Shown in pieces: positions 15,460 to 27,067 of a stretch of 64,000 nt of DNA; position 1 is the stretch's first letter, and each line of letters begins with the position of its first letter. A model generated the notes under the pieces. That model had not been told where the DNA came from. It did not search any database and worked only from the letters and a program-made list of their open reading frames with translations. Location: the NCBI GenBank assembly GCA_964478075.1, contig CAYZGO010000007.1, positions 22,975-86,974 on the forward strand. The letters are read 5' to 3'. Source of the stretch: an uncultured Anaerolineales bacterium. Lineage in GTDB: Bacteria; Chloroflexota; Anaerolineae; UBA2200. The translations under genes and the position numbers were made by a program.

Positions 15460-18400
15460 CTACTGTGCCGTCTTCTTTCGTACTAACGCCAGCAGGTCCG
15501 CCCCATATTTCTCCAGCGTGCGCTTACCTATGCCCTTGATAGCGAGCAACTCGCGTTCGGTACGAGGGCACAGTGCGGCAATGCGTTGCAGCACCGAATC
15601 GTGCGCAATCACGAAGGCTGGCATACTTGCCGCACGGGCCGTCTCTCGCCGCCAGGTACGCAGTCGTTGGAACACCTCGTCATCATCGGCAACGGGTGGA
15701 GCGTCCTCTGATGCGTCTACGCTCTTCTTTTTCCGGCGCGAGGTCGTCTTTCGCTGCGCTGGTGGTCTGGCCGCAGGCTTGGGAGCCAGTGCGTGCAACA
15801 CAGCAGGCTTGCGCAGCGCCTGGTGACCAGCGGAGGTGAGTTCAAGCATCACGCCGCCATGCTCCAGTCGGCGTGTGCGCAGCAGCCTGGCCGTGAGCAG
15901 ACGCTCCAGCATGCGCTTGATCGCCGCGTCGGAGCGAAAGGCCAGCGCCCCGAAAGCAGGCTGTTGGTGCGAAGACTCTGGCGCTTCCGGATGCCCGCGC
16001 AAGATACGTATCAGATTGCCCCGCCCCCAGCCATGGGACGCTGCCAGGCAATGCAGGATAGTCTGGAACTGCTCCCATTCGTCTGGCAGGCCGTGATCCA
16101 GGGGCAGCGGGGCCAGATCCAGACAATTGTCGCAGGCAGTGCATTGTGTGATAGTCCGTCCGCCGAGGTAGGCGCTGATGTGTCCGTGGCGACAGCGCTG
16201 CGTCTTGGCGTAGGCCACGATTTCGGCTACGCGCTGGCCTTGCACCTTCTCGTACTGTTCCAGCAAAACGCTGAGCCGCTCGTGAGCGTCTTCGGGAGGT
16301 GGCAGCACTTCCAGCAGAGGATCGCGCCCCGAAGATCGGCACTCTAACCAGCCAGCATCGGCCCAGGCCAGCAGGCGGCGCTCCAGAATCCTTACATCCA
16401 GATGTGCCTGGCGTCCCACCTCGAACAGATCCAGCCCCAGTGGCTGGCCGGGCCGCAGACGGGCGGCGTGGCAGAACGCTGCCAACTCTGGCTCATCATT
16501 CGGTAGGGCGCTTGTCAGGCGCACGGTTGTCCTTCGCGGCGCATCTTGCCAGCGCCGCAAGAGGCCTACTTGCTGCAGCAAACTGATTGCTACCCGCACC
16601 GGTGTCTCTTCGGCCTGCACGTCGCGCCGCAGGTCGTCAATGGCCACGCGACCAGGCGATGCCCCGTGCAAGTGCCGTTTCACAGAAGCGTAGACCTGAC
16701 GAAGAAAGTCCTCTGGCAGCGCATCTTGCCGTGCGTGCCTGGTAAGAGTGGCCCGATCTGATGAGGCGTACATCAGCACACAGCGGGCAGGCAGTCCATC
16801 GCGCCCGGCACGTCCCGCCTCTTGGTAGTACGACTCTAACGAAGGCGGTGGCACAAAATGCACAATGAAGCGGATATCGGGTTTGTCAATACCCAGGCCA
16901 AAGGCAACGGTGGCCACGATAACACGCACGCGGCCGCTCATAAATTCGTCCTGTACAGCAGCCCGGTTAGGGACGCCAGCGTGGTAGTGGGTTGCGGAGA
17001 TTCCCTGACTGCGCAGCAAAGCTGCCAGTTCCTCGCATCGCACGCGGGTACCAGCATAGACAATCCCTCCGCCAGGCTCACTGCGGCAGAAGGCCAGCAG
17101 GTAGCGCAATTTGTGGTCACTGTTACGCGCGATAAAGACCTCCAGACGCAGGTTGGGCCGCAGCACATCGCCCGCGATGACACGCATATCTCCCATGCGG
17201 CGGATGATGTCACGACGCACTCTGGGCGCGGCAGTGGCTGTCATGGCCAGAAGGGGAGGATTGCCCAACGCCTGGCGAGCTTCAGCGATGTACAGATAAT
17301 CAGGCCGAAAATCGTGGCCCCACATGCTGACGCAGTGCACTTCATCAATCACCAGGCGATTCACGCCAGCACAGCGCAAAGCGTGCAAGAACAATGGCTG
17401 GCGCAGCCGCTCCGGAGCAGCGTAGACCAGCCGGTAGCCGCCAGCTCTGATCCTGCGCAAGCGGCGACATAGTTCGTCACCTCTCAGGGTAGAGTTGATC
17501 GTCGTCGCCAGCCGGCTTGCCTGAGACGGCAGTTTGTCCACTTGATCTTTCATCAAGGCGATAAGTGGAGAGATGACGAGTGTTGTCCCTGATTCGGCCA
17601 ACAGTGCTGGCAGTTGGTAGCACAGCGATTTGCCGCCGCCGGTAGGTAGCACCGCTAACACGTCCTCCCCGCGCATAGCACAGGCCATGATCTCAGCCTG
17701 GCCAGGCAAAAAGTCCTCATGGCCAAAAAAGCGCCTGGCAGCAGCCAGCAGTTGGGCCCTCTCTTGCGACGAGACCGAAACGGTCTCGAAGGAGTCGAGC
17801 GGTTTGGCGGGGGCCTTTGCTCGCTGCGCCACTTGGATTGGCTCTGGCTCTACCTGCCCTGGTAAGTGACGTCCAAACTCAGTCGCTATCGCTTCCTGAA
17901 GGTCGGCCAACTCTGCAGCGTAACGCGTTGCCAGTTCCGTCTCGATGTCGGCAGCGCGGTTTGTCTCTCCGCTGGCCTCAAAATAGGCGTGCAGCCGCCG
18001 TAGGTGGGTCACTGCCAAGGGCTTCTCCGCAGCCGCCGCTTCCTGCAAGCGCACGGCATAGGCGCTGGCGGCTACCCAGTTGCCCTGAACCTGGTGGATG
18101 GCCATCGTACCCAGAAGGTAAGCGCGGCTGTCCGGGCGTATCTCGTTCAGGCGGCGGTATGCGGCGCGGGCGGCTGCGTGATCACCCGCTGCCAATTGAA
18201 CTTCGCCAAGCAGACTCCAGGGCGCAGCTTTGTCTCCTGCTTCTGTAACCAGTGTCCGTGCGATCTCCAGTGCAGCCTGTACGTCATGCCGCGCCAGATG
18301 GATGCGTGCGACGAATGCTTGAGATGACATGGAGGTTCTCAACTGATGCCGTTTGCGCATCGTGTCCAACGCAGCGTCTGGCAAGCCCTCGTTAAGGAAC

Positions 18401-18591
18401 ATCCGTGCCTGCACGTCCAGTAACGAGACCAGACTTGGATTGGCCGGAAGCAGCTCGTCCAGAGAGGCGGCAAGGGCCGCATGGTGCTTCCAGCGCAGAA
18501 GAAAGTACACCAGATGGCTGCGTAGGCGGCCTGGCAACTGCAGCGTTTGTCCTGGAGTCAGGCCGAGTTCGAGCAGAACATCAGCGGGCAT
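15460..18591 (-). CDS. recQ: RecQ-family DNA helicase with an N-terminal helical/TPR-like extension of about 270 aa
   Basis: 1043 aa. Helicase motifs LPTGGGKSLCYQLPALL, DEVHCVSMWGHDFRPDY and the RecQ Zn-binding Cys cluster (CRHGH...CTACDNC). C-terminal HRDC domain (DEVFQRLRTWRRETA...IKGIGKRTLEKYG). Residues 1-270 are helical repeats with no helicase motifs. Confidence 0.85.
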   Translation of the reverse strand: MPADVLLELGLTPGQTLQLPGRLRSHLVYFLLRWKHHAALAASLDELLPANPSLVSLLDVQARMFLNEGLPDAALDTMRKRHQLRTSMSSQAFVARIHLARHDVQAALEIARTLVTEAGDKAAPWSLLGEVQLAAGDHAAARAAYRRLNEIRPDSRAYLLGTMAIHQVQGNWVAASAYAVRLQEAAAAEKPLAVTHLRRLHAYFEASGETNRAADIETELATRYAAELADLQEAIATEFGRHLPGQVEPEPIQVAQRAKAPAKPLDSFETVSVSSQERAQLLAAARRFFGHEDFLPGQAEIMACAMRGEDVLAVLPTGGGKSLCYQLPALLAESGTTLVISPLIALMKDQVDKLPSQASRLATTINSTLRGDELCRRLRRIRAGGYRLVYAAPERLRQPLFLHALRCAGVNRLVIDEVHCVSMWGHDFRPDYLYIAEARQALGNPPLLAMTATAAPRVRRDIIRRMGDMRVIAGDVLRPNLRLEVFIARNSDHKLRYLLAFCRSEPGGGIVYAGTRVRCEELAALLRSQGISATHYHAGVPNRAAVQDEFMSGRVRVIVATVAFGLGIDKPDIRFIVHFVPPPSLESYYQEAGRAGRDGLPARCVLMYASSDRATLTRHARQDALPEDFLRQVYASVKRHLHGASPGRVAIDDLRRDVQAEETPVRVAISLLQQVGLLRRWQDAPRRTTVRLTSALPNDEPELAAFCHAARLRPGQPLGLDLFEVGRQAHLDVRILERRLLAWADAGWLECRSSGRDPLLEVLPPPEDAHERLSVLLEQYEKVQGQRVAEIVAYAKTQRCRHGHISAYLGGRTITQCTACDNCLDLAPLPLDHGLPDEWEQFQTILHCLAASHGWGRGNLIRILRGHPEAPESSHQQPAFGALAFRSDAAIKRMLERLLTARLLRTRRLEHGGVMLELTSAGHQALRKPAVLHALAPKPAARPPAQRKTTSRRKKKSVDASEDAPPVADDDEVFQRLRTWRRETARAASMPAFVIAHDSVLQRIAALCPRTERELLAIKGIGKRTLEKYGADLLALVRKKTAQ

Positions 18592-18615
18592 CGCGGTTCC
18601 TCCTTGGGTAGTACT

Positions 18616-19341
18616 TCACAGATTGTCATAATCCACAGCCACCTCATAGTCTGGCACGACGTGTACACCGACTATCAGCGGCCAATATCGGCCCCGGTAT
18701 CTACGGCCCAGGCCCAGCGCCAGGTATATGTCCGTGGCTTGCAAACGGGCGGCCAATTCAGAGCCGTCGAGCACCAGTTCGCTTCCAGATGCGGCTAACC
18801 AAGCGCGTCCCAGAGCACGCCACTTGATGTCAGTCACGGGGACACCTCGTGCGGAGTTGGCACGCTTGAGTCGCAGGTCGCCCAATCTGAAGCCTATGCG
18901 TGCTTCGTACTTGCCGGAGTAAGGGTCTATTGAAAACAGCGCGTGCACTTCATCGGGGCGGACCAGGCAAAGTGAGCGACTGTGGTGGATAAGCACGTCC
19001 TCTGGGGCACGATCGAGGTGGGTGGCAAAGAAACGGGCGCGCCGCTCGCCTTCCAGGCGGCGCAACAGGCGGGGGCGTTGGTAGATGAAATCGGTGAGCC
19101 AGTCCTCTGTATGCGGCGGGTCAGGGCGGGGCTTCTTGAGGTCCAACGCCACCACGTCGCTGCACTCCACGACGCGCCCCGTCTGGTCGGTCATGTCGCC
19201 CAAGAGCACTGTGTCGTGCTCCTTGACTGGACGCACCCAGCGCAGGCCCGTGGTCGCATCTGGCTGTCGAGTGAATCCGGCCGTGCAAATGCCACTTTGC
19301 ATGCGGGTCATGGCTAGAATCAGGACTTCCTCTGTAGGCAT
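18616..19341 (-). CDS. Hypothetical protein (about 242 aa from the RBS-supported start; the ORF extends to 19428), cotranscribed with recQ
   Basis: RBS GGGAGA before the ATG (MPTEEVLILAMTRMQSGICTAGF...). A 24-nt gap separates it from recQ. No motif I can name. Confidence 0.5.
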   Translation of the reverse strand: MPTEEVLILAMTRMQSGICTAGFTRQPDATTGLRWVRPVKEHDTVLLGDMTDQTGRVVECSDVVALDLKKPRPDPPHTEDWLTDFIYQRPRLLRRLEGERRARFFATHLDRAPEDVLIHHSRSLCLVRPDEVHALFSIDPYSGKYEARIGFRLGDLRLKRANSARGVPVTDIKWRALGRAWLAASGSELVLDGSELAARLQATDIYLALGLGRRYRGRYWPLIVGVHVVPDYEVAVDYDNL

Positions 19342-19447
19342 GGCGCTCTCCCATAAGCACCCAACCTCCCGCAGGTTCAGTTTGCGGTAGAGAATCAGGC
19401 AACTTTGTTGGCCAGCCTCTCGACCCAAACCAACGTGCGGGAGGGTT

Positions 19448-19888
19448 TCACAAGTGTACTACAACTAATTCCGCTATGTGAGCGGCCCAGAACTCGGCCA
19501 CAAGACGGCGGTGGCACTGTTCAGGCGTGGCTTCGTAGCACAGCAGGCAGGGGGCACGGTAACGGGCCAGGATATCGCGCCCCACAGCTTCAGCTTGACG
19601 TTCGGCCAGCAACTCCGTGAAACGGGCTACATAACCCGGCCAATCATGATCCTCACTGTAGGTATCCAGAATCTCAGGTGTGGGTGCCAGTTCCGGGTGA
19701 TGCTCGTAAGCGATAGCAAAACCTTGGCGCAGCAGGAAGGCCAGGTCATCGCGCTTGGTATAGCCGGCCAGGTGAGAGGTGTTGCGCAAGCGGACGTCAA
19801 TGACGGCGTCCACTCCCGCTTTCTGCAGCAGACTGATGAACTCCGCCAGAGGACGGCGTTCGTAGCCAATGGTGTATAATGTAGGCAT
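19448..19888 (-). CDS. DUF488 (YeaO-like) family protein
   Basis: MPTLYTIGYERRPLAEFISLLQKAGVDAVIDVRLRNTSH...GFAIAYEHHPELAP fits the DUF488 N-terminal signature. 146 aa. Confidence 0.7.
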   Translation of the reverse strand: MPTLYTIGYERRPLAEFISLLQKAGVDAVIDVRLRNTSHLAGYTKRDDLAFLLRQGFAIAYEHHPELAPTPEILDTYSEDHDWPGYVARFTELLAERQAEAVGRDILARYRAPCLLCYEATPEQCHRRLVAEFWAAHIAELVVVHL

Positions 19889-19898
19889 GGGCGTCTCC

Positions 19899-20495
19899 CT
19901 AGAGGGGAAGAGTGAGCTGCTGCGCTTCCGGTTTCGCTTCAGTCACTGTCCCATTGGGACGGATGTGAAACACACGGGCTCCGCGTTCCAGCAGAGTCGG
20001 TGTGATGAGCTTGGTGCGGTGACATTTGCGATAGTCACCCTCGCTGCACATCATGGCTACGCGCTCTGACTCGGCCAGTTTGAGGAGCCGTTCGATGCCA
20101 GTCTGATAGGCCGGAGTTTGCGCCAGGCGTTCATAGTTGGGATGCTCCTGACCTGCATCGTAGAGCGCAGGATCAGCAGGCCGCCCGCCGAGGGAATCAC
20201 CCGTGAAGACGTAGCGTATGCCAGCAGCCTCAAGGTCACGACGCAGGCTCTCGCGGTTGAACTGTGGTGCCCACTGACTATACGGCTGGCTGCGCACGTC
20301 CACGACGACGGTGATCCTCTGTCGGCGCAGCAGATCTAGGAAGGCTTCGATTGTGTGATCGCTGTGGCCGATGGAACATATCTGCACGCGGCCTATCGCT
20401 GACTCTTCTGTGATCACGTCCGTGCTCATCGCATTTCCAGCCTCTGGCGCACTCAGTCGTGAACGCATTCTAGCCTGAAAGCGTGCAACCTGCAA
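19899..20495 (-). CDS. DUF488 family protein (second paralog; N-terminal start uncertain)
   Basis: VQICSIGHSDHTIEAFLDLLRRQRITVVVDVRSQPYS...GIRYVFTGDSLGG matches the DUF488 core. A 10-nt gap separates it from the downstream paralog. Confidence 0.65.
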   Translation of the reverse strand: MQVARFQARMRSRLSAPEAGNAMSTDVITEESAIGRVQICSIGHSDHTIEAFLDLLRRQRITVVVDVRSQPYSQWAPQFNRESLRRDLEAAGIRYVFTGDSLGGRPADPALYDAGQEHPNYERLAQTPAYQTGIERLLKLAESERVAMMCSEGDYRKCHRTKLITPTLLERGARVFHIRPNGTVTEAKPEAQQLTLPL

Positions 20496-22396: not shown

Positions 22397-22409
22397 ACGT
22401 CCAACGAAG

Positions 22410-22438
22410 ATTGACGAAACGTGGCAAATAGGCTATAC
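22410..22438 (+). promoter_or_regulatory. Putative promoter TTGACG-N17-TATACT for the tRNA pair
   Basis: TTGACGAAACGTGGCAAATAGGCTATACT about 10 nt upstream of tRNA-Pro. Confidence 0.45.
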
Positions 22439-22446
22439 TATCTTTA

Positions 22447-22521
22447 GCGGGGTGTGGCGCAGCCTGGTAGCGCGCAGCGTTTGGGACGCTGAAGTCGGAG
22501 GTTCAAGTCCTCTCACCCCGA
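22447..22521 (+). tRNA. tRNA-Pro (anticodon TGG)
   Basis: Cloverleaf folded by hand: acceptor CGGGGTG/CACCCCG, D-arm GCGC-AGCCTGGTA-GCGC, anticodon stem CAGCG/CGCTG with loop TTTGGGA, T-arm GGAGG-TTCAAGT-CCTCT. No encoded CCA. Confidence 0.8.
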
Positions 22522-22562
22522 CAGCAATAGCGGTCGAGCATTTGTGACCGCAGCCTGTGTTT

Positions 22563-22635
22563 GCGGGTGTAGCTCAGTTGGCAGAGCTCCTGCCTTCCAA
22601 GCAGGTTGTCACGGGTTCGAGTCCCGTCGCCCGCT
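22563..22635 (+). tRNA. tRNA-Gly (anticodon TCC)
   Basis: Acceptor GCGGGTG/CGCCCGC, D-arm GCTC-AGTTGGCA-GAGC, anticodon stem CCTGC/GCAGG with loop CTTCCAA, T-arm ACGGG-TTCGAGT-CCCGT. Confidence 0.8.
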
Positions 22636-22703
22636 CCTACTATGTGGAATACGCCTCCAGGCAAGATGCCAGAGCAGGTTGTGGTGGTGAACCCCCAACG
22701 TGC

Positions 22704-24860
22704 TCATGCCCCCTTTGCTCGGCCTCGCCGCAGAAGTTCGTCCGGCACATTCGCCAGGAAGCAGGAGGGCTGGCCCTGAGAGTAGCTCAGATAGAGCAGG
22801 TCTCGAGCACGGGTCATGGCCACGTACAAGCGTCTCCGTTCTCGATCCAGGTAGTCTTCCAGCTCCTCGTTCTGCAATGTAGGGTTATCCCTGGGCACAT
22901 ATAGGCCATCTGTTACACCAAGTACAAACACTACTGTGAATGTCAGCCCTTTTGCGCTGTCAAAGGTGCCATATTTAACAGCGCTCCCCCAATATGAGCT
23001 TGTCGCCTTCTGCAGATCGGACAACTCCACGTGGGGCGACAAGTAGAGTTTGATGAGGTCTGCATAGGGTCGCTGCCAGCGGTAGATGAGGGCAAAATCA
23101 GAATCTGCATACCCTCGCTCTTTCTTCAGGCGAGCGATTTCGCTCATAACCCAACATACTTCGGCGTATGGGGTAGCAAAGCCGTGCAGCCTTGGCACAT
23201 CACCACGCCGCTCGGAGAACTCTGGTTCGGGAGCTTCTCCGTCTGCATCGTCCATGTTGTCGAGACGCACACCCGCCACCATAGCATGCGCCGCGCGCAG
23301 GATTTCCCGCGTATTGCGAAAGCTCTGGGACAGCAGGGCGCCCCGCCCAATGATGTCAATACCCAGCGACTTTAGCGCATAGCCACCGGGATAGATACGC
23401 TGCAGCCCATCCCCGACGAGAAAAAGGTCGTTTGGCCCCGGGGGAACAATCCGACGGATCAGGTGCATGGCGGCCTGGGTCAAGTCTTGGATTTCATCCA
23501 CCACAGCAGCTACGTATGGTACTGGCAGCAGTTCAGGCCGGAACAACCGCAAGGTTTCCAGCACGAAATCGCCATAATCCCACAACCCCCGGCGTTTCAG
23601 ATCTGTCTGATACGCCTTGTACACCGCGTAGACAGCACGACGGTGCGCGTCCCGTAGGGGAGTGCCGCGGCCGCTGCGATCCAGAGCCAAGTACTCGTCT
23701 ATGGTCCGTACGTCTCGTCCCTTAATAGCGTAGCTGATCTCCGAGTAGAAGAACGACCATGGACGAGCCCAAAGGCTCAATCCGGGATAGTGTGGGACGA
23801 TCTGGAAGATCGCATGCTGCACAGCCTGCTGGACAGCCTCCTTGTCCACCACAGGATTCTTGCCTTGACTCACCAGGAAGCGATAGCACCACTGAGCCAC
23901 ACCACTACAATCCACAGCCTCGAGTTCAGGAGCCCCTTCGCCAGCCAGACCTTGCAGCTGATGCCAGGCGACGCCCGCCAGGCGATCGTCGTACGTCAGG
24001 AAAAGGACTTTGCCCCCCGTTTTCAGCGCCTGACGGGCCAGGTTGCGAGCACGGTGAATGGCTACCACGGTCTTGCCGGAACCCACGACCCCTTTCACAC
24101 GGGCTGGGCCGCTGTACGAGCGGGTGGCCAAGGCACGTTGGCGAGGGGTGAGAAAGAGCATCCACTCCTCCATGTTTCCGGCCAAGGCCCGCTGAAACTC
24201 GTCGCCATTGATGAACCGATGTAGATGATAGCCCCCTTGGTGGTGCTCCAGTCTCTGCTGCAGCTGTTTGTCCGGCACGGTCGGCTTTTCCACAACACTC
24301 AGCGCGATTTCCAGTAACTGACCGTACGCTTCGCCAGACAAGAGGCGTTTTACCCATGTTAGCTGCTTGGGATTATCCAGTAGACGCACATTGGGCAGCA
24401 CATACTCTGGTACACCGATGTCCAGCAACTGTTCATCACTATAGTCCGCGAAAAGCGTCCTCGGTTCCCCTTGCACGCCGCGAAGCCGACCGACCAGTCC
24501 GCGCTTCCCTTCCACGGGCTTGGCGCTCACGTGGAGCAGGTCCACCACTTTGACCATGCCGTCCTGAAGTCTGAAGCTCGTTCGCGCTGCGCGCCGGTAC
24601 GCCTCAACCTGCCGATCCACCAGGCACAGCACCATGTCGTAGGGCTCGATGTGCTTCCAGATCAGGCAGTAGGACTCATCCACACGACATGAATAGACTG
24701 CGCGCTCTGCTTGAGGCACCTTCTCGCAATGCAACCCATCAGCCCAGGGATTGTCGAGCATCTGTTCAACGGTGCGCACCAGACTCGTGGAGACAGCAGG
24801 CGGCAATTTGCCCAGGTCTCGCAAGGAATCACGGGTCATGGTCGGTTTCCAGGATTCCAT
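22704..24860 (-). CDS. SF1 (UvrD/PcrA-like) helicase with an N-terminal RelE/ParE-toxin-like domain
   Basis: 718 aa. The N-terminal region (about residues 15-90), LRDLGKLPP...AVYSCRVDESYCLIWKHIEPYDMVLCLVDRQVEAY, has the RelE/ParE pattern (yRvg-dYRiiY...v.vl.v.hR..vY). The helicase core has Walker A GVVGSGKT, DEIQD, VGDGLQRIY, LSQSFRNT, FDSAKGLTFTVVFVLG and LYVAMTRARDLLYL. Confidence 0.8.
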   Translation of the reverse strand: MESWKPTMTRDSLRDLGKLPPAVSTSLVRTVEQMLDNPWADGLHCEKVPQAERAVYSCRVDESYCLIWKHIEPYDMVLCLVDRQVEAYRRAARTSFRLQDGMVKVVDLLHVSAKPVEGKRGLVGRLRGVQGEPRTLFADYSDEQLLDIGVPEYVLPNVRLLDNPKQLTWVKRLLSGEAYGQLLEIALSVVEKPTVPDKQLQQRLEHHQGGYHLHRFINGDEFQRALAGNMEEWMLFLTPRQRALATRSYSGPARVKGVVGSGKTVVAIHRARNLARQALKTGGKVLFLTYDDRLAGVAWHQLQGLAGEGAPELEAVDCSGVAQWCYRFLVSQGKNPVVDKEAVQQAVQHAIFQIVPHYPGLSLWARPWSFFYSEISYAIKGRDVRTIDEYLALDRSGRGTPLRDAHRRAVYAVYKAYQTDLKRRGLWDYGDFVLETLRLFRPELLPVPYVAAVVDEIQDLTQAAMHLIRRIVPPGPNDLFLVGDGLQRIYPGGYALKSLGIDIIGRGALLSQSFRNTREILRAAHAMVAGVRLDNMDDADGEAPEPEFSERRGDVPRLHGFATPYAEVCWVMSEIARLKKERGYADSDFALIYRWQRPYADLIKLYLSPHVELSDLQKATSSYWGSAVKYGTFDSAKGLTFTVVFVLGVTDGLYVPRDNPTLQNEELEDYLDRERRRLYVAMTRARDLLYLSYSQGQPSCFLANVPDELLRRGRAKGA

Positions 24861-25234
24861 ACCGGCGATAGCCTCCTAGTGTAGCAGAAAACGTCCGCCG
24901 CGACTTGAGACACCCGTTCCATTTGACAATCCCGCAGCCAGTCGATGGCCCGACATCTCATGGGATCTGCGGGCTGCACATGATGCTATTATACTGTCCA
25001 GGACTCATCTGGGCAAATCCTCGCGTTCTGGTGATTACCTATATTCCGGTTTTGGGTCCGTCGAGCTTCAATGGGCATCTCTTTGCGGAGCCTTGTTCGC
25101 CTCAGTCAGAGGCCGAAGCCGCCGTTTCGCACTGAAAGGCGATGGCTTACCTAGATTGAGACTGGCGCCAGACTGTAAGAGTCGCTGGATCTGCAGCTCC
25201 GAAAAGATGTGGGTAATCACCGCACAACGGTCTC

Positions 25235-25262
25235 TTGACATTTGTGGTGAACTGGCTATAAT
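25235..25262 (+). promoter_or_regulatory. Consensus sigma70 promoter (TTGACA-N16-TATAAT) heading the glycan supercluster
   Basis: TTGACA at 25235-25240 and TATAAT at 25257-25262, about 80 nt upstream of the NusG-paralog ORF. Confidence 0.6.
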
Positions 25263-25340
25263 CGATCATACACGCGTTATCTATGCGGTTGCTGGGGACA
25301 CTTGGCCCAGTGCTAGCCACGCAGCTCTCACGGTGTACGG

Positions 25341-25970
25341 ATGATCCAGGCCATTTCAATCAGGAAAGCGGTGCTGCATGCTTGGGCGTGTCTCACTCAG
25401 CTCTTGGTCACGTCACACGTAGACTGGAGTGCGAAGGGACCAGGACGTCAGGAGAGGCGAGACGTGGAAGTCTGGTACGCACTGCATACCAAACCACGCA
25501 AAGAGTACCAGGTGCGTGATCTCCTGGAGAGCCGGGGAATGGAGACGTATCTGCCGGTGCTCAAGGTGACCTGTAAAGGACATCTGCGAAAGAGACGCGA
25601 AAAACCTTTCTTCGCTCGCTATCTCTTTGCGCGCATGGACCTCACCAGCGTGCCGCTCTCCTCCCTAAACTGGGCTCCCGGTGTGACCCGCGTGGTCAGT
25701 TTCGGTGGCCAGCCAGCCGTGGTGCAGGATGAGATACTGCAGTGGCTGAAAGACCGGCTGGCGCGGATAGACTCGAGAGATTACCACCAGGGGCTGCCCC
25801 TTCGGCGCGGTGACCGGCTGCGGGTGAAGACCGGGCCGCTGAAGGACATGGAGGTCATCTTCGAGCGGCCACTGTCTTCAGAAGATCGAGCGCAGGTGCT
25901 CATCGAAATGTTGGGTCGCCTCACCGCCTGCCAGATTGATCTACATTGCCTCGAACGGATGGAAAGATAG
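25341..25970 (+). CDS. NusG-paralog transcription antiterminator-like protein (UpxY/LoaP/TaA-type; NGN plus KOW domains). The start may be the GTG near 25453.
   Basis: NGN domain VEVWYALHTKPRKEYQVRDLLESRGMETYLPV...KPFFARYLFARMDL. KOW motif LRRGDRLRVKTGPLKDMEVIFER. It sits at the head of a co-directional polysaccharide cluster rather than in a secE-nusG-rplK context. Confidence 0.75.
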   Translation: MIQAISIRKAVLHAWACLTQLLVTSHVDWSAKGPGRQERRDVEVWYALHTKPRKEYQVRDLLESRGMETYLPVLKVTCKGHLRKRREKPFFARYLFARMDLTSVPLSSLNWAPGVTRVVSFGGQPAVVQDEILQWLKDRLARIDSRDYHQGLPLRRGDRLRVKTGPLKDMEVIFERPLSSEDRAQVLIEMLGRLTACQIDLHCLERMER

Positions 25971-26302
25971 CAGGCCGGGCTGCCACGCCCGGCTGTCCGG
26001 CGGCGTGCCCACTCCGCTTCACGCCGTGGATGCTGCGCGAGCAGCCGCCTCTGCTGACCTTTCGTAGAAGCTCGTGGGCAGTTGAAGGACGCTAACAGCC
26101 GCCCTCTCGCAGATGGGCGGACATACGGCGGGTTGCTTCGATTGGGTCTTTGTTGGGGGCAAACGTGACCCAATGGCGGAGCGTGCCTGACTATCGTTCT
26201 GGTGCCACCTGAGAGAAGGTACCGGAACGGCGGAGCCTGCCTGGGCAACGTGAAGCGTGAAACGTGATGAGGGGCGGGTAGCGAGTGGCGAGGCGGGAGG
26301 AA

Positions 26303-27067
26303 ATGACACAGCCGGTGGGCCGAATGCGGGCCCCCGGCGGCACGTGGGGCAACCTGCGGCTGTACATGGAACGGCAGGCCGCGAGCCCGGCGCGCTACCT
26401 CCTCGAGCAACTCCTGTTCGCCCTTGTGGGCTGGATCCCCACGGTGCTGGGCATCGGACTCAGGGCGCTTGTGTATCGGCTGATCCTCCACATGGACGGA
26501 CTGGCAGCTATCGAGAACGGCGTGCGGCTGCGCTTTTGCAGCCACATCCGTCTGGGCCGCGGCGTGTACATAGACAATGGCGTCTATCTACATGCCTGCC
26601 TGGGCGGCATCGAAATCGGTGAAGGCACCTTTGTGATGCATCACGCCGAGCTCCACGTGTACAATTTCCGCAGCATCCCCCATTCGCACATTCGAATAGG
26701 TCGCAACTGCTTGATCAGCGAGTACAACGTCCTGCGCGGGCAGGGCGGCATCACGATTGGCGACAATGTCTACACCGCCCCTCTGGTGCAGATGCTGGCC
26801 GTTGACCACGTTTATGACGACCCGACGCGGCCCATCATCGAACAGGGGATCACGGCGAACGGGATTGTGATTGAGGACAATGCCTGGATCGGGGCCGGGG
26901 CCATCATCCTCGACGGGGTGCGGGTAGGGAAAGGGGCCGTGGTAGGAGCGGGGGCGGTCGTGACTGAGGATGTGCCACCACACACGGTGGTGGCAGGAGT
27001 TCCAGCCGAGGTGGTGGAACAGATTGAGGGCGCCCCTACATCGGCACGAGGGACGGTGTACTTCTGA
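26303..27067 (+). CDS. Hexapeptide-repeat (left-handed beta-helix) acetyltransferase
   Basis: Repeated [LIV]GxxxxI hexapeptides ([43 protein letters not shown]). RBS GGGAGGAA before the ATG at 26303. Confidence 0.75.

Follow-up and report, generated by a model that had tools for sequence, protein, structure and literature searches.

What is a gene that joins a toxin-like domain to a DNA helicase doing on its own beside a tRNA gene? The question is raised by a 64-kb stretch of DNA from an uncultured Anaerolineales bacterium (contig CAYZGO010000007.1; this whole stretch is hereafter the window), in which an uninterrupted open reading frame (ORF) with an ATG start at 22704..24860 on the minus strand encodes a protein of 718 amino acids (aa). 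An earlier reading of the bare letters, here the original prediction, had described a 718-aa minus-strand gene in this place, which the ORF listing bears out, and the strings it had quoted (AVYSCRVDESYCLIWKHIEPYDMVLCLVDRQVEAY, GSGKT, DEIQD, VGDGLQRIY and LYVAMTRARDLLYL) are all found in the translation. The protein consists of a RelE/YoeB-like head, a helical module and a UvrD/GajB-like superfamily 1A (SF1A) helicase. With a probability of roughly 70%, the gene is best explained as an orphan homologue of ArmD, a component of the ARMADA type II anti-phage system, whose head domain is dead and which survives either as the remnant of a defence system or as an exapted stand-alone helicase.

ARMADA type II is known from a preprint (Bell et al., bioRxiv, September 2025; PMC12458937) and from a report in mBio (2026; PMC13463889). 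The type II genes encode ArmA, a BrxHII/SNF2-like helicase, ArmB, a PglX-like methyltransferase, ArmC, a YprA-like DEAD helicase, and ArmD, termed ‘GajB-like’ by the authors, which combines a RelE-like head with a UvrD-like helicase (PMC12458937). In Escherichia coli NCTC 12900, loss of any of the genes armA-D ended protection, which was non-abortive, and within ArmD the K266A mutation abolished defence while D454N lowered it (PMC12458937). The armABCD genes were confirmed in enterohaemorrhagic E. coli EDL933 (z5899-z5902), and DefenseFinder is noted to predict the system (PMC13463889). In these two sources, anti-phage activity of type II is shown for E. coli NCTC 12900 and EDL933 only (PMC12458937; PMC13463889).

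The protein in the window has the same three-module architecture as ArmD of E. coli NCTC 12900 (WP_000218177.1), with 718 aa against 704. A tblastn search of plasmids returned matches on E. coli and Klebsiella plasmids, and one such E. coli plasmid (locus L041) carries an operon of an SNF2 helicase, a methyltransferase, a 2113-aa DEAD helicase and a 704-aa helicase. Residues 16-702 of the window protein align with residues 18-701 of this plasmid ArmD at 30% identity (BLASTP, E 6e-77), so that head, helical module and helicase are all covered. The Walker residues of the plasmid protein are K266 and D454, as published (PMC12458937), and are equivalent to K263 and D455 of the window protein; the helical-module motif LF..Y...L..GVP is common to both. 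The ArmD proteins compared here are alleles of E. coli plasmid and chromosomal armABCD operons rather than the exact published accession. The same armABCD operon also occurs on an Aulosira plasmid and on an E. coli chromosome, and 533 of 5426 complete E. coli genomes carry the ArmD gene. Further evidence comes from the protein’s own clade, members of which fill the ArmD position in YprA-SNF2-methylase operons.

That the window protein is an ArmD homologue is thus well supported by its RelE-like head, its UvrD-like helicase and full-length collinear homology, although it departs from the family at positions 65 and 84, where R65 and H84 are replaced by C65 and Q84. The use of these two residues as a mark of ArmD is derived here from conservation and is not stated in the ARMADA papers. 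Other differences are also apparent. The Chloroflexota clade is just 28-31% identical to E. coli ArmD, motif V reads GLEF in ArmD and GLTF in the window protein, and, unlike ArmD of ARMADA type II, the window copy has C, Q and V in place of R65, H84 and D85 and stands in 64 kb of DNA without ArmA, ArmB or ArmC. The original prediction had not recognized the fusion as a described architecture; it corresponds in fact to ArmD of ARMADA type II (PMC12458937; PMC13463889), and since the joining of a RelE head to this helicase is already published and validated in two E. coli strains, its novelty is low.

The head domain (residues 1-92; 24585..24860, minus strand) has a RelE/ParE-superfamily fold of the YoeB-like type. 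On its own, the window head gives just a sub-threshold HigB-like match in Pfam (E 0.075). When a profile built from 24 heads is compared with the sequences of the PDB, the five best matches (E ~0.003) are RelK (Rv3358) and otherwise YoeB entries, four in number, and E46 and R65 of the family line up with the ‘PE’ and ‘HRLVY’ of YoeB. When the 24 heads are scanned singly against Pfam, YoeB_toxin matches 20 of them (best 8e-6), ParE_like 20, HigB-like 16 and ParE_toxin 12; ParE_toxin also matches L026. A full-length AlphaFold2 model built on a 76-sequence alignment (mean predicted local distance difference test score, pLDDT, 86; predicted template-modelling score 0.81) gives the head a beta-alpha-alpha-beta-beta-beta-alpha topology at pLDDT 84-95. 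With a separate model of residues 1-235, the top 50 Foldseek matches in the PDB are all RelE/ParE-superfamily toxins (among them YafQ, YoeB, RelE, RelK, HP0894, HigB and ParE2) plus Cami1. The head superposes on the YafQ, YoeB, RelE and RelK structures with target template-modelling scores of 0.75-0.80 and root-mean-square deviations of 2.2-2.6 Å over ~85 columns, and the ParE2 structures rank lower. A NERD or PD-(D/E)xK head, which had been named as the finding that would overturn the toxin-like fold, was rejected, none being among those 50 matches. The fold that had been proposed for residues of about 15-90 is therefore upheld for residues ~1-92, and a confident structure model together with the sequence profiles places the head in the YoeB/RelE/YafQ group and not with NERD. 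Among the Foldseek matches is also the crystallized H87Q mutant of YafQ (4mmg), a His-to-Gln change in a related toxin.

Catalysis in E. coli YoeB depends on the set E46, R65, H83 and Y84. The ArmD-family head keeps a similar set, E46, R65, H84 and Y88, in which R65 was matched to Arg65 of YoeB by profile alignment and H84/Y88 to His83-Tyr84 by inspection. Position 65 is Arg and position 84 His in 116 of the 116 other members of the clade, while the window protein has Cys (TGC) and Gln (CAG), respectively. Both residues are likewise kept in 17 of 17 diverse homologues, which represent some eight phyla and among which is E. coli ArmD. Of the 148 best cluster representatives, 141 have a residue aligned there, and all of these keep both. 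They are, in other words, invariant in every homologue examined except the window copy. Less strictly conserved residues have changed as well, with D85 (110/116) replaced by Val and K72 (109/116) by Glu. Each of R65C, H84Q and D85V lies a single nucleotide off the consensus codon. The window head retains E46 and Y88, so that two of the four residues found in its relatives are gone, and because R65C and H84Q, plus D85V, replace conserved residues, the window head is most likely catalytically dead. For the family as a whole, the strict conservation of the YoeB-like set argues for a catalytic head, and the same residues would imply a head that cleaves RNA or recognizes RNA ends, coupled to an ATP-driven 3'-5' DNA translocase. 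A role as a classical mRNA interferase is hard to square with the non-abortive defence seen in E. coli. The published ArmD mutants concern Walker A and Walker B alone, and in the text of neither paper are the head residues mutated or discussed (PMC12458937; PMC13463889).

The helicase is for the most part preserved. The SF1A helicase core (residues 236-718; 22704..24155, minus strand) is identified by Pfam, PADLOC and Foldseek, with the UvrD-helicase domain at residues 239-490 (4e-16), UvrD_C at 618-695 (1e-16), and PcrA, UvrD and Rep as PDB matches of the full-length model (E 1e-22 to 1e-20). The helicase is therefore complete, as had been read from its motifs, and of the UvrD/PcrA type. Walker A K263, Walker B D455/E456, motif III Q487, motif IV R515 and motif VI R684/R686 are intact, and the ATPase core is probably still active, to judge by these residues. 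Deviations do occur at positions conserved in 115-116 of the 116 other clade members, namely N513S/Y514F in motif IV and E640T/K642T in motif V. Between head and helicase lie three further segments, all on the minus strand: a beta-hairpin (residues 93-107; 24540..24584) that packs after the head, with AlphaFold2 strands at 94-99 and 102-107 and conserved F96 and L98; a disordered linker (residues 114-133; 24462..24521) with pLDDT below 50 in both models and low column conservation; and the conserved helical module (residues 134-235; 24156..24461), with AlphaFold2 helices within 142-226, an LF..Y.D.ELL..GVP motif, GG209-210, EF221-222 and W233. The helical module is also present in E. coli ArmD according to the BLASTP alignment and contains columns that are invariant among homologues, and among the listed best Foldseek hits of the 1-235 model no PDB entry matches it. 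Among alignment columns with 90% or more conservation in the other members, the window copy differs at 5 of 23 in the head, 4 of 26 in the helical module and 15 of 152 in the helicase. It also forms a long branch, with 61% identity to its nearest neighbour against a clade median of 74%, a distance at which synonymous sites are saturated.

The gene is real and carries plausible expression signals. More than 116 full-length homologues exist in databases, which makes a chance ORF untenable, and in a search of 5.8 billion proteins over 100 relatives matched along the full length (~715 aa; 41-61% identity), a number of them already bearing the JGI labels ‘SF1 helicase / RelE’ or ‘/ YoeB’. An AGGAGG Shine-Dalgarno sequence lies 11 nucleotides (nt) 5' of the ATG at 24860, and a promoter-like site, TTGCCC-17-TATAAT (24988..25016, minus strand), is a consensus match ~130 nt upstream of it.

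The gene is an orphan, and its neighbours are housekeeping genes. ArmA (BrxHII/SNF2), ArmB (PglX-like methyltransferase) and ArmC (YprA-like DEAD helicase with MZB/DUF1998) are all absent from the 64-kb window, so that the type II arrangement, with ArmA, ArmB and ArmC ahead of ArmD, is not found there. On one flank are DUF2148, DUF4013, DUF488 and DuOB genes, and on the other a NusG paralogue heads a polysaccharide-type cluster that includes glycosyltransferases. The longest ORF in the window encodes a 1043-aa RecQ helicase ~4 kb from the ArmD-like gene.

Two tRNA genes were located by ARAGORN on the plus strand, tRNA-Pro(tgg) at 22448-22522 and tRNA-Gly(tcc) at 22563-22637, the latter being treated here as context rather than as part of a system. 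The gene had been said to begin 69 bp from the 3' end of tRNA-Gly. The adjacency stands, and 69 nt do separate the last sense codon from the tRNA (66 nt from the stop), but the wording needs correcting, as the tRNA lies beyond the stop codon of the gene and not beyond its start, which makes the two convergent. This adjacency had also been taken as a signature of defence genes, a reading that is not supported. No att-like direct repeat of the tRNA occurs in 22400-27000, no integrase is found near the gene in the window and no GC or other compositional anomaly was detected at the locus; an integrated island at the tRNA was rejected on the absence of the tRNA-derived repeat and of a GC anomaly. 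The statement that neither an antitoxin-like small ORF nor an integrase is visible nearby is upheld by the ORF listing and the annotation of the neighbours, and no cognate antitoxin gene is in the ORF list of the window.

Relatives of the window protein are numerous and occur in diverse settings. With a profile of head and helical module, the representatives of 50%-identity clusters that are retrieved number 1481 at a cut-off of E <=1e-3 and 492 at the stricter E <=1e-10, and complete family representatives are nearly all 680-740 aa long; P0135, P0138, P0140 and P0159 reach 889-923 aa against the usual ~715, and some of these carry an extra domain. A scan of 185,579 species, which used just two peptide patterns and is incomplete, recovered 32 loci. 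In two Chloroflexota metagenome contigs from the window’s own clade (L043, 1-12145; L044, 1-12151), a YprA-type helicase of ~1700 aa with MZB is followed by SNF2, an Eco57I/PglX-type methylase, one or two extra genes and the homologue. This is the type I gene order of the preprint, with YprA first, to which an ArmD-like gene has been appended, yet the preprint gives ArmD for type II (PMC12458937). The intervening genes are an EVE gene and an unknown 263-aa protein in one contig and an unknown 376-aa protein in the other. L025 has the type II gene order, with a methylase, a 2157-aa YprA-like helicase and the homologue, while L013 (421-12136) has SNF2, a STAND/TPR NTPase, an Eco57I-type methylase and the homologue, the 869-aa STAND NTPase with TPR repeats sitting between SNF2 helicase and methylase. 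On the short contig of L011 an Eco57I-type methylase that clusters with those of L004, L005 and L013 lies directly upstream. The connection to phage defence made by the original prediction is therefore sound for the family, members of which sit in defence-type and ARMADA operons.

Other contexts, in which the ArmD-like gene closes a restriction-type gene set at its 3' end, suggest that ArmD-like helicases have been recruited by systems other than ARMADA. In L019 (1481-6977) a PLD-SNF2 helicase lies directly upstream with an 11-nt gap, in L035 (2714-9233) an N6/N4 methylase, an unknown gene and an NgoFVII-like PLD nuclease precede the homologue with a 19-nt gap, and in L016 (6424-12115) the homologue adjoins the BREX protease BrxL. 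Still others lack any such association: Leptolinea sp. HRD-7 (L001) and an uncultured Leptolinea sp. (L014) have ordinary genes on both sides of the homologue and are mutually syntenic on both, and ordinary or metabolic genes surround the homologue in L003 and in distant Gemmatimonadota and Actinomycetota relatives. An all-vs-all BLAST of ORFs within 4 kb at 27 loci revealed no conserved small partner or antitoxin ORF, the sole recurrent neighbour being the Eco57I/PglX-type methylase. When 50,697 phage records were searched with tblastn for copies carried by phages, the only matches were two partial ones confined to the helicase. Papers on HEPN, EVE and BREX diversity held nothing on a fusion of a RelE head to a UvrD helicase.

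Several single loci deserve separate mention. At ~9155-11416 of L027, a metagenome-assembled genome (MAG) of Candidatus Nanopelagicales, a related helicase carries what by eye appears to be a NERD-type head (NIDLILVGPPGVIILDAKNW) in place of the RelE-like one, which hints at head-domain swapping. The homologue frames of L022, L031 and L033 are broken, with tblastn matches running past the break, and these could be either pseudogenes or assembly indel errors. L009 (59% identity), on a 3.7-kb contig of a MAG labelled Ignavibacteria, and L016 (50%), in a MAG labelled Sedimenticola, show identities typical of the Chloroflexota clade, and their unrelated-phylum labels likely reflect mis-binning or recent horizontal transfer. 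In L008 (10800-12038) an RNA 3'-phosphate cyclase (RtcA) lies three genes downstream of the ArmD-like gene and is followed by a HerA-like ATPase; any tie between this cyclase and an RNA-cleaving head may be fortuitous.

How, then, might the gene work, and how firmly can it be called an orphan with a dead head? In canonical systems ArmD acts with ArmA, ArmB and ArmC, the last a YprA-like helicase-nuclease, all four and the ArmD Walker A lysine being needed in E. coli, and across the family the head would cut RNA or recognize RNA ends while coupled to an ATP-driven 3'-5' DNA translocase. The window gene would be expressed alone from its own promoter and ribosome-binding site, both consensus matches, to give a protein with a head that serves as a binding module at most and a helicase that probably still hydrolyses ATP. 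Such a protein would be a non-toxic stand-alone helicase that needs no antitoxin and has probably lost any ARMADA-type immunity. We infer that the head is no longer catalytic, that the protein does not act as a toxin and that by itself it cannot provide defence of the ARMADA type. Some observations pull the other way. ARMADA partner genes could sit beyond the 64-kb window. The catalytic importance of R65 and H84 in ArmD is drawn from the YoeB alignment, with H84 placed by inspection, and from the catalysis of YoeB. The N-terminal sequence is known from one assembly, the sole identical database entry being the C-terminal fragment P0007. The ORF is full-length and intact with plausible expression signals and may be under selection for some function, and stand-alone homologues with intact heads are common, as in the two syntenic Leptolinea and the Gemmatimonadota and Actinomycetota relatives in metabolic contexts, so that orphan status alone does not mean decay.

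Decay is nonetheless the nearest alternative account of the same facts. The gene might be a pseudogene in the making, the functionless leftover of a lost ARMADA system, and its orphan position within 64 kb and its place among the most divergent members speak for this, as do its many departures from conserved columns in all three modules, including near-invariant positions of motifs IV and V, which argue for relaxed constraint. A plain pseudogene is argued against by the fully open frame of 718 codons, the Shine-Dalgarno and promoter-like sites and the retention of all ATPase-critical residues, and at 61% identity to its nearest relative an unconstrained gene would be expected to carry stops or frameshifts; this explanation is accordingly held to be unlikely. 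The single-gene defence or abortive-infection module of the original prediction fares worse; such a module would detect phage nucleic acid through its helicase and set free an mRNA interferase of the RelE type to halt translation. The RelE fold is real, Cami1 (CARF-RelE, solved on the 70S ribosome) indicates that a sensor-fused RelE effector can work, and intact-head stand-alone homologues are frequent, some of them in variable or defence-like regions. However, the copy in question is without the invariant R65 and H84 and without its ARMADA partners in 64 kb, it sits among housekeeping genes, no antitoxin or other control element was found among the window ORFs or at the 27 loci, and deletion of armA, armB or armC ends a defence that is non-abortive in E. 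coli (PMC12458937; PMC13463889). A working toxin or one-gene defence is thus quite improbable here.

Lower still stands the idea of a housekeeping repair or replication-restart helicase of the UvrD/PcrA/Rep kind with an extra N-terminal domain. It would accord with PcrA, UvrD and Rep as best structural matches, with the RecQ gene 4 kb away and with the synteny of the gene amid housekeeping genes in two Leptolinea species, but scores against the NCBIfam equivalog models fall far below their cut-offs (PcrA 97 bits against 911, UvrD 68-74 against 965-1144, Rep 53 against 951, helicase IV 54 against 543), homologues recur in restriction-like and ARMADA operons, and the scan of 185,579 species, incomplete as it is, yielded just 32 loci; hence it is very improbable. 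Almost no weight can be given to the head being a ParE-type gyrase poison rather than a RelE/YoeB-type RNase. The ParE_like and ParE_toxin matches in Pfam and the lower-ranked ParE2 structures speak for it, but YoeB, RelK, YafQ and RelE are the best sequence and structure matches, and the family keeps the polar set E46/R65/H84/Y88, of which E46 and R65 align with the catalytic Glu and Arg of YoeB. ParE toxins are not known to carry such a polar set. A broader view, tentative and on balance doubtful, though less so than any of these four, is that helicases with RelE heads form an autonomous unit, a DNA translocase that recognizes or cuts RNA (for instance, where DNA is invading or damaged, its nascent transcripts or the mRNA bound by ribosomes on it), and that this unit was recruited repeatedly, by ARMADA and by operons such as those with PLD-SNF2, with a methylase and PLD nuclease, or adjacent to BrxL. 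Behind it stand hundreds of 50%-identity clusters in many phyla, with many stand-alone members in ordinary genomic contexts, some of them stably syntenic; on this view the window copy would be a natural variant with a dead head, left with binding and helicase functions alone. An orphan ArmD homologue with a dead head remains the preferred explanation of this gene.

Some neighbours of the gene are worth recording in their own right. Within 15460-20495 on the minus strand lies the RecQ-type helicase, which has an N-terminal TPR along with DEAD, RecQ_Zn_bind, RQC and HRDC domains; ahead of it on that strand are genes for a ‘dual OB’ (DuOB) protein at 18616-19428 and for a DUF488 protein at 19899-20495. 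At 25235-25970 on the plus strand, the NusG paralogue (209 aa) has a perfect consensus promoter match, TTGACA-16-TATAAT, and heads a cluster with a hexapeptide acyltransferase, a GT2 glycosyltransferase and a radical-SAM enzyme; this resembles an antiterminator that serves one polysaccharide-type operon in particular.

The locus itself is of little consequence, its architecture being published and validated in two E. coli strains, though some by-products may be of use for work on ARMADA. The head set E46/R65/H84/Y88 provides obvious mutagenesis targets for the part played by the RelE-like domain of ArmD in non-abortive defence, and the window copy, as a natural double substitution in an otherwise intact protein, is a convenient comparison point. 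ArmD-like genes are abundant in Chloroflexota and elsewhere as orphans, at the ends of type I-order operons and in other restriction-type operons, and a census anchored on YprA would miss these.

Beyond ARMADA, parts of the protein resemble other known systems. The head shares its fold with the type II toxins YoeB, RelE and YafQ (PDB 2a6q, 7v5y, 3oei, 9lew), and in its relatives E46 and R65 align with the Glu and Arg of YoeB while H84/Y88 match its C-terminal His-Tyr by inspection. These toxins are free proteins of ~85 aa, whereas the window head is fused to a 600-aa helicase, has no adjacent antitoxin and is without the Arg and His. The helicase core resembles GajB of Gabija (PADLOC GajB models down to 1e-25, residues ~250-705 only), although the ten Pfam-annotated genes flanking the window gene include no counterpart of GajA, the OLD/TOPRIM nuclease of that system; GajB is not known to have a RelE-like head. 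The best PADLOC match (C3a187, 6e-27) is to NERD-UvrD fusions, by way of helicase residues 449-705 only, and these carry a NERD (PD-(D/E)xK) head where the window protein has a RelE fold. In CoCoNuT, CnuH is an Upf1-like SF1 helicase with a RelE-fold ‘RTL’ domain that was detected by structure only (PMC11090510). Its helicase clade differs from that of the window protein, and Cami1 (CARF-RelE, PDB 8phj) uses a CARF sensor and has no helicase, but both are precedents for a RelE-fold domain within larger NTPase or sensor defence proteins.

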